Shown: positions 43,390 to 49,790 of the stretch, piece after piece | Layout: every line of letters starts with the position of its first letter | How positions within the stretch are numbered: the first letter of the stretch is position 1 | NCBI GenBank assembly: GCA_000092065.1 | Contig: CP000588.1 | Origin: Ostreococcus lucimarinus | Lineage: Eukaryota | Strand: one strand, 5' to 3' | Length of the DNA: 64,000 bases | Notes under the pieces: generated by a model | The model's database searches: none | What the model was told of the DNA's origin: nothing | What the model saw: only the letters and a program-made list of their open reading frames with translations | Program-made: the position numbers and the translations under genes

Positions 43390-43709
43390 CCCTCGATTCG
43401 CGCTTTACCACGATTCACCGTCCACCGCCTCGCTTTCGCGCCGCGCCGCTCGCGTCGCGTCCGCGCGACGGGTTTTCCGCGCGTTTCGACGCGACGCGAC
43501 GTCGCGTCGCTCGATGCCGCGCGCCGTCGCCGTCGTCGTCGTCGTCGATTCGATGCGATCCCGCGCGGGTCGTTACGCGAACCCATAACATTAAAATCCC
43601 GTACGTAGACGCGCACTCGACCGATCGATCGACCGACCGCGTGACGTCGACGTCGACGAATGCGAGTGCATGATTGCGCGCGTCGCGACACACCGCGACG
43701 CCGACGACC

Positions 43710-44078
43710 ATGCGCGCCGTGAACCGAATCGCCGACGGACGCGCGATCGTCGCGCGCGCGCGACGCGTCGAACGACGACGCGCGACGCGCTCGACGCGGG
43801 CGGAAAAAGAGGGCGAACAGATGAATCAAGAGATGGCCGGCGGCGAGATCGGGCTCGGCGGACTGGAGGACATGATGGACAAGGCGGACGGTGGGGCGAC
43901 GCCGGATTTCGTGAAATCGCTCGGCGTGAAGGAGTTGGACGATGTGTTCGCGATCCTCGGGTCGCAGACGAAGGGCGCGGAGCTCGGGCAGTTGGTGCTG
44001 AGCGAAAAGTTTGGGGAGACGCTGTACCGCGAGAGCGGGTTCACGAGCTTGGCGGAGACGATCAACGGTCGATGCGCG
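43710..44078 (+). CDS. LHC-like three-helix protein (ELIP/LIL type) exon 1
   Basis: The track ORF 43674 starts at TTG; first ATG at 43710 (MRAVNRIADGRAIVARARRV.. presequence). Exon 1 ends ..ESGFTSLAETINGRCA, i.e. inside the first LHC motif E-x-x-N-G-R. Confidence 0.7.
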
Positions 44079-44311
44079 GTGCGTTGGCGAGTCGCGCGAG
44101 TCGCGTCGTTCGATGGGGATTATGCGTCGAGAATCGCGATGGGGGGACGCGGACGCGCGCGCGCGGTGGCGAGCGCGAGACGGGGCGCGAGACGGGACGC
44201 GAGACGCGCGCTCGAGACGCCAGCGCTGGAAATATCTCGTCGCGCGCGCGCGAACGCGCGCGACGCGGCTGACGCGAAGACTGACTGACGAATATGTTTA
44301 CGCCAACGCAG
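44079..44311 (+). other. spliceosomal intron (233 bp, GTGCGT...CAG) of the LHC-like gene
   Basis: Donor GCG|gtgcgt at 44079 and acceptor cgcag| at 44311 join frame 0 to frame 2. This creates the contiguous LHC helix-1 motif AETINGRCAMVGFVLAV (compare ETINGRLAMIGF of ELIPs); phase 0. Confidence 0.75.
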
Positions 44312-44602
44312 ATGGTTGGTTTCGTTCTCGCCGTCATGAACACCTTCAACGGTGACTTGCTCACGATGATGGCCAAGGTTCCCCTCGCCGTCGTCTTCGT
44401 CATCGCCACCATCAGCGCGGCGAGCGTCGTGCAAAAGGTGAACCCGACGGGCTACATCCCGGACAACGTCAACGGTGCCGCCATGAACGCGTACTCCGGC
44501 GCTAAGTTGGACGAAGTGTTCACTTACAAGGCGGAACTGGTGAACGGTCGCATGGCTATGCTCGCCATGCTCTTCTTCGTCGCCACCGCGTCGATCTTTT
44601 AA
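44312..44602 (+). CDS. LHC-like three-helix protein (ELIP/LIL type) exon 2
   Basis: Encodes the rest of helix 1, a central hydrophobic helix (KVPLAVVFVIATISAASVV) and the helix-3 LHC motif ELVNGRMAMLAMLFFV; stop at 44602. Confidence 0.75.
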   Translation: MVGFVLAVMNTFNGDLLTMMAKVPLAVVFVIATISAASVVQKVNPTGYIPDNVNGAAMNAYSGAKLDEVFTYKAELVNGRMAMLAMLFFVATASIF

Positions 44603-44836
44603 GCGCTCGATCGACGTCGATCGAAGCGGCGCGATTCGTCGCGACGTCATTTTTTGTTCAATTCGCGCGATCGCCGCGCGCTCGGTGTGATGAAGGACGA
44701 GAGTTGATTCAATATCACTTCCCGTCGTTACCGCACTCGCGCGTCGTCGCATGTTCGTTGTAACATCCGCTAAGCAACACTACTATTCGCATCCGTCTCG
44801 ACTCCGTCGTCGCGGCGCGTCCGCACTTCTCGCCGC

Positions 44837-45634
44837 ATGCGTCTCACCAAAGCTCAAAAAGAACGCGATGCGCTCCTACTCGCGCGATTTCGTGTCTACC
44901 GCGAGTGGTGTCTACCGCGCGAGGTGCGGCAATGCATAGAGATTCGAACTCGCACGGCCAATCAACAACTCTACGAGGACTGTAAACATCTCGCGCAGAC
45001 GTCGAGAGGGCGAAAGCGAGACCTCGGCCGCGCGCTCGAACGCGTCGGGTGCGCCGAACGACACGCGCACGCGCTCTGTCAATCGTTCATAAGAGGGTCC
45101 GCGCACGTATCGTGGACGGCACGCGGAGTTGCGCATGAAATGGCGCGGCAAAAGTACTTGCTCGAGCACTCCGGTGCGTTCAAACGCGAGATCGGCGCGA
45201 TGGCGGCGAAGATCAACAAACGCCTTCACGAGTTGGTGATGGCGCGCGGACGTGTCGAAAGCGTCAGAGATGACTCAATAGTGTATGAACGAATTCGTTC
45301 GGAGGCGACGCGGGATGTGACTGGAGCGGAGACCTTCGCGGCGGCGGCGGCGAGCGTCGCGAGACACTGGCGAGATTTCCCTGTGGGGGGTTGGCCGTGG
45401 CCTACGGCGCCGCCGCCCGCTCCACTCACGAAAGGAGAAAAAGCGGTGTTATTCTTGAAGAAACTGAAATGTCACGGAGCACGCGAGCACGACAAGTTCG
45501 TGAACATCATGAACATGCACAAATATAATTTTCTGAGCGTGCGAGACGTCGATCGAGAAGTCGCCGCGTTGCTGCCGCGTCATCCGCTGCTGCGCGAGTT
45601 CAGAGAGACGTTCTTGCGCCCCGCGAGCGCGTGA
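44837..45634 (+). CDS. hypothetical protein, paralog A of a tandem pair (family unknown)
   Basis: ATG verified at 44837; MRLTKAQKERDALLLARFRVYREW..IEIRTRTANQQL..KHLAQTSRGRKRDLGRALERVGCAERH..SFIRGS..WTARGVAHEMARQKYLLEHSGAFKREIG.. The conserved N-terminal ~110 aa are shared with paralog B. Confidence 0.5.
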   Translation: MRLTKAQKERDALLLARFRVYREWCLPREVRQCIEIRTRTANQQLYEDCKHLAQTSRGRKRDLGRALERVGCAERHAHALCQSFIRGSAHVSWTARGVAHEMARQKYLLEHSGAFKREIGAMAAKINKRLHELVMARGRVESVRDDSIVYERIRSEATRDVTGAETFAAAAASVARHWRDFPVGGWPWPTAPPPAPLTKGEKAVLFLKKLKCHGAREHDKFVNIMNMHKYNFLSVRDVDREVAALLPRHPLLREFRETFLRPASA

Positions 45635-45694
45635 GCGGTCGCATTGATGCGTGCTAACGCGACCATTATTCGACGATACTGTATGACATGATTG

Positions 45695-45699
45695 TGTAA
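45695..45699 (+). promoter_or_regulatory. TGTAA poly(A)-signal-like motif downstream of paralog A
   Basis: gattgTGTAAtatgactg read directly, about 60 nt after stop 45634. Confidence 0.3.
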
Positions 45700-45715
45700 T
45701 ATGACTGTATGACTT

Positions 45716-45780
45716 CCAGACGAGTGACGACGTCGCGACGCCGCCAGACGAGTGACGACGTCGCGACGTCGCGACGCCGC
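45716..45780. repeat. 28-bp tandem duplication (ccagacgagtgacgacgtcgcgacgccg x2 with an 8-bp insertion) between the two paralogs
   Basis: Read directly: ccagacgagtgacgacgtcgcgacgccg ccagacgagtgacgacgtcgcgacg tcgcgacg ccgcg. Confidence 0.75.
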
Positions 45781-45815
45781 GCGCGCGCTCCTTCACAACG
45801 CGCCTCTTCGACGCA

Positions 45816-46397
45816 ATGGTTCGACTGACCAAGATCGAGAAGAACCGAAGAAAGCTCATCAGCTGTAGATTGCTCGTCTATAAGCTCCACGCGCTACCTG
45901 TCGAATCGTGGCGAATCATCGAGCGTCATACGCGCGCGTTAAATCTGGAACTCTGGCACAAGACGAAACACTTGCAGCAAACTGCGAAGCAGCGCAGGGC
46001 TGATGTGAAGGCGGCTCTCCAGACTCATGGGTGCGAAGATCGCATCGACGAATACCCAATAAGCAAGCGATTTATCGCCGGGAAACTCAAAAGTTGGACG
46101 GCGATACGCGTCGCGGAGCACGTTGCAAAACTCAGATATCTCCTAGACGGACACTCTCGGGAGTTTGAACGAGAAATGGCTGAGCTCGAAGGCGCAATCG
46201 ATGATGAGGTTGAAGAAATCGCCGAGATCGCGGGCATGGAACGAGGCAGAGGGCCGATTTATTTCGGTGGTATTCGTCGTGAGGCGCTGCGCAACGTGCA
46301 CGGTGCTGAAAGCTACGACGAAGCCCGGATATGCATGGCCGAGAGCTTCACCGGTGACATGCCGCGGGTCTGGCCTTGGCTCGAGCGCCGGGTCTGA
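45816..46397 (+). CDS. hypothetical protein, paralog B of the tandem pair (family unknown)
   Basis: ATG verified at 45816; MVRLTKIEKNRRKLISCRLLVYKL..IERHTRALNLEL..KHLQQTAKQRRADVKAALQTHGCEDR..RFIAGK..WTAIRVAEHVAKLRYLLDGHSREFEREMA.. aligns position-for-position with paralog A (roughly 30% identity) and ends with a shared WPW motif. Confidence 0.5.
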   Translation: MVRLTKIEKNRRKLISCRLLVYKLHALPVESWRIIERHTRALNLELWHKTKHLQQTAKQRRADVKAALQTHGCEDRIDEYPISKRFIAGKLKSWTAIRVAEHVAKLRYLLDGHSREFEREMAELEGAIDDEVEEIAEIAGMERGRGPIYFGGIRREALRNVHGAESYDEARICMAESFTGDMPRVWPWLERRV

Positions 46398-46460
46398 GCG
46401 ACGATGTCAATAGTTATCGATGTGACTTACAATGCTCGATTGCATACAAAACGTACTCGT

Positions 46461-49400
46461 TCACACGACGAGATTTGCACGCTCGGCGCGCCCCTCTGGC
46501 GTGCGGCGCTCGCGACGCTCACGAGCGAAGTCGAGAATCGAGCGCGATTTAAACACCGCTAAGACGATGACGCACACGAAAGCGAATGGAGCCGCGAACG
46601 CGACGAACGAACCAAATGGACGCTCAAAATCGCGCACATCGCCGAGGGAAGCGTGTTTACCTTGTACGTCGTCGACGGCGTCACCACGCGCTTTTTCGTG
46701 GTGCTCATCTTTGACTCCGACATCTTTCACGCCGAGCTCTTTCACGCCGAGCGCGACGGTAGCCGCCGCTGCTCTTCGCACGAGCTCGTGAGCGGTGATT
46801 ACGTTTTTCTCTGCGGCGCCGAGTCCTGCATCATTCGCTTCAATCAGCCTATCTCGCAGATGCCCTTTACTTAAACCAATAGGAGCAACGATCTGGTCTT
46901 CTGGCACCGAACCAAGAATCGCAGAGCACTGTCCTGCACACGTTCCGAAGACGAAATTTTGCGACGCGAGATTCGGGGTGTGGTACTGCACTCGATTTCT
47001 CCACTTTCCCGCCTGCACGTCCGTACAGTCGGACGTGAACGCCGGAGACGCAGTCTCTCCGTAGTAGGCTTGCCACATTTCGTGACCGAAAATGTGTCCC
47101 GAATCGTAGACGTGATTGCCTTCGGCGTCCGCCAGCGCGAACCCGTAAGCGACGGAACCAGACCAACCACTTAGTGTGGCGCCGTAAGTGCATGTATGAT
47201 AGTAATCATTTCCATCGCGCCCGGTTATCGGAGTCATGGCGATACCTCTGCTGTACGGCCACCTCATGCGGTTACCAAGAGGTGGTCTCTGTGATACGAG
47301 CTTGACTTGCGTCAAATCATCGACTGCCAGCGGGACGTGAAGATAACGCTCGTCTACGCCTTCCTCGGCTTCTCGCGTAGACGTGTTGTTCAGTGTGTAC
47401 TCTATTACGCTTTGTGGAATGCACTCCGTACTGACGTAGTAGCACGGCGGAGGAACGACCATGCATGGATCAGCAGCCGGACAACTCGGATGTTTGTGAT
47501 CTGAAGCTGAGAGCGCCTCAAGAATGCCTTCCAACTCGCTCGTATCGTTGTCTTGAGGGCAAACCAAGTCATCGGAATCGCAGTTCCAGAGCGCGCCGAC
47601 AGGACCTTGAACGTCGAGTTGCGTTCGAGACCCGGCGCACGTAGCCTTGCAGTTTCTGCCGTATCTGAAATGCCATTGAGCTCCATAGGTGCTGAGACTA
47701 TTGCGATGATACTTCGACAGATACGCCGGCATCGTAATGTCGTCAGCCACATCATCAACAATACTCGCCAATGGAACTGGGAGAATGGGAATGTGTGTGT
47801 GATTGTTACGGTGCCCATACACCGGAACGACGTATGGGTTAGCGACAAACACGACGAAAGGTTCCATTTCGAACGATTCGTGCTCGTCGTATTCCGGAAC
47901 ACTCGCGAGCGGCACGAATGGCGCAAAGTGGGGCGGTGGTGGCGGGCTCGGAGGCGGGCTCGGAGGCGGGCTCGGAGGCGGGCTCGGAGGCGGGCTCGGA
48001 GGCGGGCTCGGAGGCGGGCTCGGAGGCGGGCTCGGAGGCGGGCTCGGAGGCGGGCTCGGAGGCGGGCTCGGAGGCGGGCTCGGAGGCGGGCTCGGCGGGC
48101 TCGGAGGAGGGCTCGGAGGAGGGCTCGGAGGAGGGCTCGGAGGAGGGCTCGGAGGAGGGCTCGGAGGAGGGCTCGGAGGCGGGCTCGGAGGCGGGCTCGG
48201 AGGCGGGCTCGGAGGCGGACTCGGTGTTGGCGTCGGCGTCGGCGTCGGCGTCGGTGCGGCAGCCAGGGCGGCGGCGGCATTAGGTGCCAGCACTGCGTTG
48301 TGATATTCGAGATACCTCTCTTCTGCTTCCAAGTTAAAAGTCGCCAAGTCGTCTTGCGCGAGCTGCGCATCCAAATCAGTCAAGAATGAATAACTATTCG
48401 TCGTTTTCCAGGCCTCGATTGTGTCTACAACGTGTTGTTGGTACACTTCATCGGCAGATATATTGACATTTTGGTTGAACGACCAAACATCTGCAGCCGC
48501 AGCTTCTGAATCTAGTGAAAGATCACAGAGGTACGTGTTTATTGTGCACTGCGAAGACTGCCATTCGTCCACCTTCGTCGTAATGTAGCGTTCTTTCACT
48601 GCAGCGTTCGTACTGGTCACGTCGTCGTTGGATTGCAATCTTGCTTCTGGAGTGGTCACGCTGTACGAGTGCGTAGACGCCCACGTCGAAACACGAGAAC
48701 TCTCCGTATTCCAGTAATGGGCGTCGTAGGCCGACTCGAGCGCTGCGTTGTATCCCTCCAGATCGTTGACCACGTCACGGATCGGCCAACCCGATGGCGC
48801 ATACCCAGTCGCGGCGTTTGAAAGCAAGAAATCGTCCAAGGCGGCTTGTTCGTCGATTTGGAGCTCGAGGTGCTTGTCACCGGAAAGTTGTTCAAATCGA
48901 TCCATCCATTTCTTCGTCGAAGCGCTGATCGACAAACCTTTGCGGTAAAACTTGCCTAATTTCGACACATCCCCCGCGCGATAGTAAAGACGGAAAAACT
49001 CGAATAGATAGTCTTTAGTATCACTGGCGATATCGGCATCGCTGATCGCATGTCTCGTCAGCCAAGCTTGCAAATCCCGTTGCACGCGCGCGTTTATCAT
49101 CAAAAACGCCGCGTAACGCATGTCCATCACGAACGTAGTCGTATCGCTCGGATCACCGTATCCGGAAGCCGGTCTCAGCACTGATTCAGTCATCCAAGGA
49201 CACGTGTAAGTGAGTCGAAGACTACCGAAGTAATCTGGGCTGTACGTTTTCCACACCTCGTTCCGATTGCCGTCGTCATCCGCGCCCGTGATGACGCACG
49301 CGTCATAATCGGCGTCTCCAGCGTAATGCTCGCTCACATACGCCGTGAGCGCACTCTGAAACTTGGGCAAGTTAAAAGGTTGCATTATTTGCGTGTCGTA

Positions 49401-49790
49401 GTTCGCGTATCGCGGGTTTTCGCGCATCATGATCCCGGGACATCTATCGAAGCGGTCCGTCACGCCGCGATGGCTGTACCTCATGCATCCCGGGTGCGGC
49501 ACTCTGGGGTCATCCACGTGCGTGTACGCCCCGAGCGTCCCCACCGCGGCGATCGACACCGTCACGCACGCGAGCGCGACGGCGAGCGCGCGCCCGATCG
49601 TCACCACCGCGCGCACATTTCGTCGAGTGTGCGGTCGGGTGTTCCGCGTCGTCGTCATCGTTCTCGGCCGTGGACGCACATTCGATAGGGTGTTACGCGT
49701 CGTCGTCATCGTTCTCGCCTTTCCCGTCTCGCCGGCGACGATCACGCCGGTGCGCGGGAGAGAAGCATCGCGACGCTGTTTCGATGGCAT
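46461..49790 (-). CDS. extensin-like hydroxyproline-rich-glycoprotein-type membrane protein with (SPPP)n module
   Basis: ATG verified at 49790; 1109 aa. N-terminal signal-anchor ([26 protein letters not shown]), a large Cys-containing globular region, then (TP)5 + (SPPP)~25 and a second Cys-rich globular region. C-terminal hydrophobic segment ([22 protein letters not shown]) and basic tail. GC is lower than in flanking genes. Confidence 0.6.
47941..48251 (-). repeat. near-perfect 12-bp coding microsatellite (ggaggcgggctc)n ~23 copies plus (ggcgtc)5, encoding (SPPP)n(TP)n
   Basis: Read directly on plus strand 47941-48221: ggcgggctcgga repeated, with five central ggagggctcgga variants, followed by ggcgtcggcgtcggcgtcggcgtc. 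Confidence 0.9.

Follow-up and report, generated by a model that had tools for sequence, protein, structure and literature searches.

Two neighbouring genes on the plus strand of a 64,000-nucleotide (nt) stretch of contig CP000588.1 of the picoalga Ostreococcus lucimarinus (hereafter the window) raise two questions: what kind of protein they encode, and why a few codons in one of them differ so widely between natural haplotypes. The original prediction described the two genes, here called A and B, as open reading frames (ORFs) of 265 and 193 amino acids (aa), and both are present on the same strand where it had placed them. We consider it about 60% probable that A and B are intact, selectively maintained tandem duplicates of the O. 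lucimarinus lineage, that they belong to an undescribed protein family for which a role as nuclear adaptor can be inferred, that the spacer between them is ordinary, and that A contains a local mutation hotspot, the patch. The coordinates of all these features are given in Table 1.

The patch is by far the most variable part of the region. In a comparison of 25 sequences by 30-nt sliding windows over 5.3 kb, it showed 14 haplotypes; the next most variable window, which is intergenic, showed 8, and 975 of the 1066 windows had two or fewer. In metagenomes the patch occurs as 15 distinct DNA alleles of 18-27 nt (14 plus the allele of locus L027, see below) and as one version with a 1-nt deletion. 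Translated in frame, the versions from ocean metagenomes amount to at least 19 protein alleles, with flanks of 99.7-100% identity, and A is nearly invariant elsewhere. The nearest alleles are 2-8 edits apart, with flanks that are 99.1-99.9% identical. The same alleles return in independent projects and samples, and individual protein alleles are found on 105, 52, 26, and 21 contigs, which argues that they are not assembly noise. The second and third ranks of variability in the region are held by positions 43650-43680 (8 haplotypes) and 43541-43551 (6), small indels included, in a GC-rich stretch that runs from the TIC20 gene to the next plus-strand ORF.

The changes in the patch leave the frame and the framework of the protein in place. 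All in-frame alleles keep the W, the F-P, and the W-P-W of the motif that closes the domain, with the sole exception of P0021, which reads LPW. The length changes of the indel alleles are all multiples of 3, including those of three indel alleles at loci chosen by their flanks; the 1-nt deletion version stands apart. Synonymous positions vary too: the codon of a conserved Pro, for example, is CCT, CCG, or CCC.

Several alleles resemble products of local copying. At loci L001 and L009, CCCGTCGATT(T) is duplicated in tandem (10-11 nt). The allele of L020 is that of L012 with one T more in one T-run and one T less in the next; the two frameshifts compensate each other, and SI becomes VD. Inverted copies of 45328-45343 are found in L015 (12 nt) and L011 (10 nt), and in L023 positions 45222-45232 recur as a direct copy of 10-11 nt. 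Shuffling was applied to the alleles of L011 and L023, and 2 and 4 of 500 shuffles, respectively, were as good. Changes of these kinds are typical of slippage and template switching.

Comparable events are known from other systems. Published descriptions of Pol-theta end joining include templated extension in cis (snap-back) and in trans (PMC4912351, PMC5068794, PMC2943611). The scars of Pol-theta or alternative end joining, like quasi-palindrome template-switch mutations, resemble the short tandem duplications of the patch and its direct and inverted insertions copied from 30-150 nt away. A Pol-theta scar arises once, from an induced break, whereas the patch presents many independent products at one natural site, which persist in frame in the wild. 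Bacterial contingency loci and diversity-generating retroelements (DGRs) are functional analogues only. They share with the patch a short coding stretch far more variable than its surroundings and slippage-prone runs (here T3-4, C3-7, and G6), but A is a eukaryotic nuclear gene, its changes are not adenine-specific, and its alleles are mostly in frame and not ON/OFF. The changes hit all bases and include indels, and, beyond chance 11-13-mers, neither the patch nor its flanks occur a second time in the 64-kb window to act as a DGR template. A donor for gene conversion was considered as well and rejected, since the matches elsewhere in the window are chance-level 11-13-mers.

We propose that the codons of the solvent loop in the closing motif of A (45371-45391) form a local mutation hotspot, rewritten by slippage and template switching, while selection preserves the frame along with three anchors, W, F-P, and W-P-W. 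We favour such a hotspot filtered by selection over ancient balanced alleles, because linked diversity is not raised beside the patch and its synonymous positions vary; diversifying selection may act on top. These two observations also bear on a possible, if rather unlikely, explanation without any special mutation process, namely that A is the target or sensor in an antagonism with prasinoviruses or other partners and that its exposed loop is under negative frequency-dependent selection, the tandem duplication and the fast divergence of A and B being part of the same arms race. Several patch alleles do reach appreciable frequency, as the above contig counts show, and the anchors are kept while the positions between them and the loop length vary. 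Furthermore, A and B have departed much further from the family consensus than other members have, and their sole structural neighbour, a weak one, is FirrV-1-B19, a protein of an algal giant virus (see below). The literature on Ostreococcus includes accounts of populations that quickly evolve virus resistance (PMC5498103, PMC13390643). Selection alone nevertheless leaves unexplained why linked diversity stays flat up to the very edges of the patch, and why the patch has synonymous differences. The slippage or template-switch origin of several alleles is clear, three scans of IMG/VR revealed no relatives in viral contigs, and the gene is not in an outlier region of low GC (56-60% locally, compared with 61% for the window).

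The two ideas can be combined, and we offer the combination as a tentative one with a rather low chance of being right: the patch would be a hypermutable "contingency locus" of a picoalga, where recurrent local breaks or stalled forks, repaired by template switching, would keep yielding in-frame loop variants of a new chromatin-associated domain, and where these variants would be retained by an antagonistic interaction, e.g., with prasinoviruses. In either case, the patch would be a rare eukaryotic example of a hotspot, or of very strong diversifying selection, that can be read from public metagenomes. If its mutation rate is truly raised, it would provide a system to study template-switch mutagenesis and its evolutionary use in a highly abundant eukaryotic phytoplankter.

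Some observations weigh against the hotspot. Many of the loci were picked because they have a differing protein allele, which inflates the number of alleles per sequence and hides out-of-frame alleles. A less biased set, composed of the window, six loci found by their flanking DNA only, and a single contig standing for the eight that share the P0004 allele, still has 7 patch alleles in 8 haplotypes. The 1-nt deletion is a version of the window allele (CCCTGTG to CCCGTG) found on a single contig, at positions 2230-2255 of L028, a 681-kb Joint Genome Institute (JGI) sequence. It would cut A before WPW, with the loss of the PAH-like domain described below, and is either a true OFF allele or an assembly error in a G-run. 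Lastly, an imperfect inverted repeat with (GCG)5 and CGGCGCCGCCGCC arms brackets the patch and places it at the apex, and the corresponding predicted hairpin or cruciform, which would explain a local fragility, is no more stable than those of shuffled sequences (z of -0.94 for DNA and -0.87 for RNA).

One locus has a different structure. At L027 (1600-1817), A stops right after the patch, with the allele PVVDFPSI, and is followed by the antisense strand of a guanylate-binding-protein-like gene (..FPSFLWVVRDFTLRLE). The insertion of a mobile element at the patch was considered for this locus; given this continuation, a chimera or a rearrangement at the hotspot is more likely than a transposon end, and it is probably a chimera.

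Could the variation of the patch simply reflect missing constraint, one or both ORFs being decaying remnants? We give this little credence, less than to any other explanation considered here. All the full-length haplotypes are open: 14 DNA haplotypes of A among 25 sequences and 4 of B among 18. This lends no support to pseudogenisation of one copy, which the original prediction had named as a refuting condition. Unconstrained DNA would vary over its full length, not over some 20 nt, and A is almost invariant outside the patch, while the many indels inside the patch are all multiples of 3. Both genes have the pattern of GC content expected of coding sequences, with third codon positions (GC3) above first (GC1) and first above second (GC2), and the domain of B is modelled with high confidence when the family alignment is used. 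A few facts go the other way. Outside the patch, non-synonymous changes are about as many as synonymous ones (6 and 5 in A, mostly on two divergent haplotypes; 3 and 2 in B). There is a rare allele of B with a C-terminus altered after PRV (P0007 and P0035, on 1 and 6 contigs), besides the above-mentioned deletion version of A. Two further points in favour of decay, the lack of a database record for the product of A and the loss of cysteines that are conserved in the family, are presented below.

The original prediction saw homology in the N-terminal 110 aa or so. A and B are indeed homologous, but this limit is too narrow, as the similarity extends over residues 1-188 of A and all of B. BLASTP aligns A 1-188 with B 2-188 (36% identity over 194 aligned positions, E 3e-29), and the identity in four successive segments of the domain is 45%, 39%, 31%, and 42%. 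The WPW motif, described as C-terminal, is found in both proteins but is internal in A (aa 186-188), where 77 further residues follow it. The idea of an old local duplication agrees with the phmmer results, in which A and B are reciprocal best matches with about 90 bits. The runner-up of A (70 bits) is among Mamiellales-like members encoded by compact green-algal contigs, which have the same two N-terminal helices, and that of B (52 bits) among the members of the "YY.GI" subgroup. A search by tblastn found no third copy in the window. The similarity scores fit a tandem duplication followed by fast divergence, and the pair, unlike the domain, appears to be confined to populations of the O. lucimarinus type. 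We also considered the short direct repeats D1 and D9 as marks of a duplication unit of about 1092 nt and rejected them, as they are at chance level by our own estimate.

The family to which A and B belong, defined by an all-alpha-helical domain of marine algae, is undescribed and fits none of the known kinds. An exhaustive HMMER search with a profile of A and B retrieved 45 cluster representatives at E <= 1e-3, of which 18 at E <= 1e-10, and each of the two proteins matches 33-36 family members by phmmer. The family is therefore not the lineage-specific gene that had been supposed, since the domain is also present in diatoms, the named members being from Thalassiosira profunda and Cyclotella atomus, and in a genome resembling that of Ostreococcus mediterraneus. 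The latter corresponds to one cluster on compact contigs with 60% GC, where the neighbour gene clusters with an O. mediterraneus protein; the locus is not syntenic with the window. The description of the family as unrecognised holds. In 37 members (A, B, and 35 relatives), the shared domain has no match to a Pfam model; searches of the PDB by sequence and by profile were empty, and a fold search with the predicted domain of B gave no neighbour of solved structure. The AlphaFold2 model of this domain, built from the family alignment, is confident, with a predicted local distance difference test (pLDDT) of 92.4 and a predicted TM-score (pTM) of 0.80. The family thus provides a domain of prasinophyte green algae, diatoms, and other marine algae that is new to Pfam, with a confidently predicted fold that lacks a solved neighbour.

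Members of the family follow the consensus R(R/K)DL..EL..LGC..R.DS.LC..F..G ... (W)TA..VA..MAEMKY..EYC..F ... YY.GI..DAC.EV.G ... W..FP..WPW and usually stop at WPW or run on only as an acidic tail. The core has about 135 aa, to which the Mamiellales-like members add a two-helix N-terminal extension. In an alignment of 32 sequences, P183, W186, P187, and W188 (numbering of B) are invariant. The closing motif reads HW-RD-FP-VGG-WPW in A and F-TGDM-P-RV-WPW in B, which has no F before the P. It is nearly invariant in six sister clusters, and that of B is ordinary. Four cysteines are common in the family without being universal (LGC, LC, EYC, and DAC); A has two of them and B has one.

Some apparent relatives turned out to be something else. 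Word-indexed searches for homologues with A, B, and P0053 as queries returned near-identical environmental alleles only. P0006, with 69% identity to A, and P0038, both from Logan assemblies, were rejected as homologues, since their sequences are those of A and B, altered throughout by C-to-T changes (e.g., L to F, H to Y, A to V, and R to C). From this pattern of substitutions, we regard them as assemblies of bisulfite-like converted reads and not as relatives.

What sets A apart from B is its C-terminus, which resembles the paired amphipathic helix (PAH) domain. PAH domains are Sin3-type modules that dock short helical peptides of transcription factors. A single-sequence model of A predicts four helices at the C-terminus with a pLDDT of 70-79; for residues 1-192 its pLDDT is below 50, so we used it for the C-terminal helices only. 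The Pfam model PF02671 matches aa 219-260 of A with E 0.007, and a BLASTP comparison with PAH1 of mouse Sin3A, for which we used an approximate sequence, gives an end-to-end alignment with 28% identity over 68 positions (E 4e-6). Residues 197-265 follow the Sin3 pattern A..FL..K ... F..IM ... V...V..L..HP.L...F..FL.P, with positions 4-45 of the 45 in the Pfam model aligned, and include the motif RHPLLREFRETFLRP, which would correspond to the HP.L...F..FLP end of PAH. In contrast to Sin3, a large scaffold with several copies of PAH and a histone deacetylase (HDAC) interaction region, A has a single copy on 265 aa.

The other domains found in the family point, weakly, to a nuclear adaptor in chromatin or transcription. 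Some relatives carry a linker-histone domain (Linker_histone, H15), which is clear in P0042 (E 7.6e-14) and weak in P0058 (E 0.014). The latter is the T. profunda protein KAL9186227.1. These two algal proteins have a homologous WPW-terminated C-terminal domain (E 3.8e-13 and 9.3e-8 to the A/B profile), although A and B lack H15 and the identity is only 21-31%. P0066 has an XPA_C zinc finger just under threshold (E 6.8e-5), P0040, P0047, P0053, and P0056 have acidic (D/E) tails, and several relatives have CxxC knuckles. Because of the fusions to H15, to an XPA-type zinc finger, and to acidic tails, and because A and B are basic and A has a PAH-like domain, we infer that the family may provide such adaptors. 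A would then bridge a ligand of its PAH-like domain to the target of the WPW domain, with B acting as a stand-alone form. Fusions to chromatin modules recur in the family, and they provide a functional lead that can be tested.

This functional reading has its own difficulties. The match of A to the PAH model, at 16.5 bits, is below the Pfam gathering score of 21.3, and a phmmer search of the PDB with the C-terminus of A as single sequence retrieved no Sin3 chain. The adaptor role is drawn from charge and from fusions in only a few relatives, which makes it a weak suggestion. The loss of most of the common cysteines in A and B may also mean that their mode of action is not the canonical one; it makes it less probable that they work like the canonical members, and leaves the homology unaffected. 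We also considered a SAP domain, as the hydrophobic spacing R..DL..EL..LGC..R.DS.LC..F..G resembles SAP/HeH by eye and the model has a helix-loop-helix at B 57-87. It was rejected: hhalign gave a probability of 1% over 15 columns against a small, approximate alignment of SAP (PF02037) sequences, and none of the 37 members has a Pfam SAP match at E <= 10.

The only structural neighbour of the domain with a high Foldseek probability (0.99) is FirrV-1-B19 (Q6XM17) of the phaeovirus Feldmannia irregularis virus a, with a target TM-score of 0.59 over 138 columns. It is a protein of no known function, and the likeness is by fold comparison alone, with E 0.18, 17% identity, and a query TM-score of 0.40. 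This weak likeness, the patchy spread of the family over distant algal groups, and a GC3 that is low for the window (0.66 in A and 0.62 in B, with neighbouring genes mostly at 0.70-0.84) speak for a derivation of the pair from a mobile element, as the original prediction had offered as one option, or from an endogenised giant-virus gene. Such an origin is very unlikely on the rest of the evidence. There are no terminal inverted repeats or target-site duplications around 44600-46460, where the longest inverted pair has 29 nt with 72% complementarity and has one arm inside A. Pfam detects no transposase, integrase, or reverse-transcriptase domain, the 64 kb contain no other copy, and the IMG/VR scans mentioned above were empty. 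The pair occupies the same position in every haplotype, between a gene resembling those of the light-harvesting complex (LHC) and an ORF of 1109 aa. Furthermore, other ORFs of the window that are clearly cellular have a GC3 as low as that of the pair (0.617 and 0.565).

The reference annotation covers the pair in part. The product of B is exactly XP_001419232.1 / A4S1Y8, a "predicted protein" of O. lucimarinus CCE9901. The exact 265-aa product of A has no NCBI or UniProt record, though 26 environmental contigs carry it, and for this reason A appears to be missing from the reference annotation. In metagenomes, prokaryote-style gene callers often place the start of A at Met102, which explains the "proteins" of 162-166 aa in the databases. 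The lower GC noted for B is real: 55.3% compared with 59.5% in A and 61.2% in the window, and the difference in GC3 (62% and 66%) goes in the same direction.

Table 1. Position of the features of genes A and B in the window.
Feature	Position	Strand	Description	Basis
Gene A	44837..45634	+	265 aa; family domain, Pro-rich linker, and PAH-like domain; isoelectric point (pI) 10.2	ORF listing
Shared all-alpha domain of A (aa 1-188)	44837..45400	+	closes in W-RD-FP-VGG-WPW	BLASTP vs B, profile search, phmmer
(GCG)5 run inside A	45338..45352	+	left arm of imperfect inverted repeat; right arm 45405-45417	Tandem Repeats Finder (TRF), inverted repeats I15, I18
Hypervariable patch of A, codons 179-185	45371..45391	+	18-27 nt by allele; x positions of W-xx-FP-xx-WPW	haplotype comparison
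Pro-rich linker PTAPPPAP of A (aa 189-196)	45401..45424	+	predicted non-helical	translation, single-sequence model
Putative PAH-like four-helix C-terminal domain of A (aa 197-265)	45425..45631	+	absent from B	sub-threshold PF02671, model
Spacer A-B	45635..45815	+	181 nt; 3' region of A, then upstream region of B	sequence
28-bp tandem duplication in spacer	45716..45771	+	27/28 identical; nested 8-nt CGACGTCG period at 45756-45781	TRF, repeat search
Gene B	45816..46397	+	193 aa; family domain alone, ends in PRVWPWLERRV; pI 9.3	ORF listing, exact match to XP_001419232.1 / A4S1Y8

There is nothing unusual in the arrangement as such, two tandem duplicates separated by a small minisatellite. The spacer does contain a 28-bp tandem repeat, as had been noted, but its copies (45716-45743 and 45744-45771) are not exact, and their longest exact common run is 25 nt. 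TRF reports a period of 28 with 2.0 copies and 96% matches (45716-45772), and 3.2 copies of the nested 8-nt period. The spacer is identical in 19 of the 21 haplotypes; L011 has a single 28-bp unit (45745-45772 is absent) and L023 has a base change. This variation suggests that the duplication is young and its copy number varying. The repeat is a minisatellite, or variable number tandem repeat (VNTR), whose copy number differs between haplotypes. An extra-long spacer in L017 was rejected as a case of additional repeat copies, since there is an assembly gap of Ns there.

The spacer seems to be divided between the two genes. Its AT-richer part has the repeat that had been reported there, TGTATGAC, present twice, at 45680 and 45706, the copies being separated by ATATGAC. 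TGTAA is the usual polyadenylation signal of green algae, and since it is found at 45695-45699, in this part of the spacer, the part is best read as the putative 3' end of A. The part with the repeat is rich in GC and is found 45-100 nt before the ATG of B. The palindromic motif CGTCGCGACG(T/C)C, which is part of the 28-bp repeat, occurs at 44637-44648, 45731-45742, 45759-45770, and 45767-45778, i.e., about 200 nt before the ATG of A and about 40-85 nt before that of B. Either a regulatory element common to both genes or a remnant of the duplication event could account for it.

The genes around the pair are ordinary nuclear genes, encoding an SNF2/Rad54-like helicase, TIC20, a small chlorophyll a/b-binding-like protein, a proteasome subunit, and subunit a of the V-ATPase. 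This neighbourhood is constant in all 25 haplotypes examined, and the gene order is the same on all the environmental contigs that were retrieved. The chlorophyll a/b-binding-like ORF directly upstream of A (44294-44602) has identical DNA in 23 of 23 haplotypes, in contrast to the patch 800 nt away. Haplotype L012 has a 9-nt in-frame deletion (44087-44095) inside the ORF at 43674-44288, which has no family assignment. On the other side of the pair, the minus-strand ORF of 1109 aa (46461-49790) encodes a lineage-specific protein with a PPSPPPS-repeat part (approximately 47975-48187), where the alignment of most haplotypes that reach it breaks. This suggests that the length of the repeat is variable in the population.

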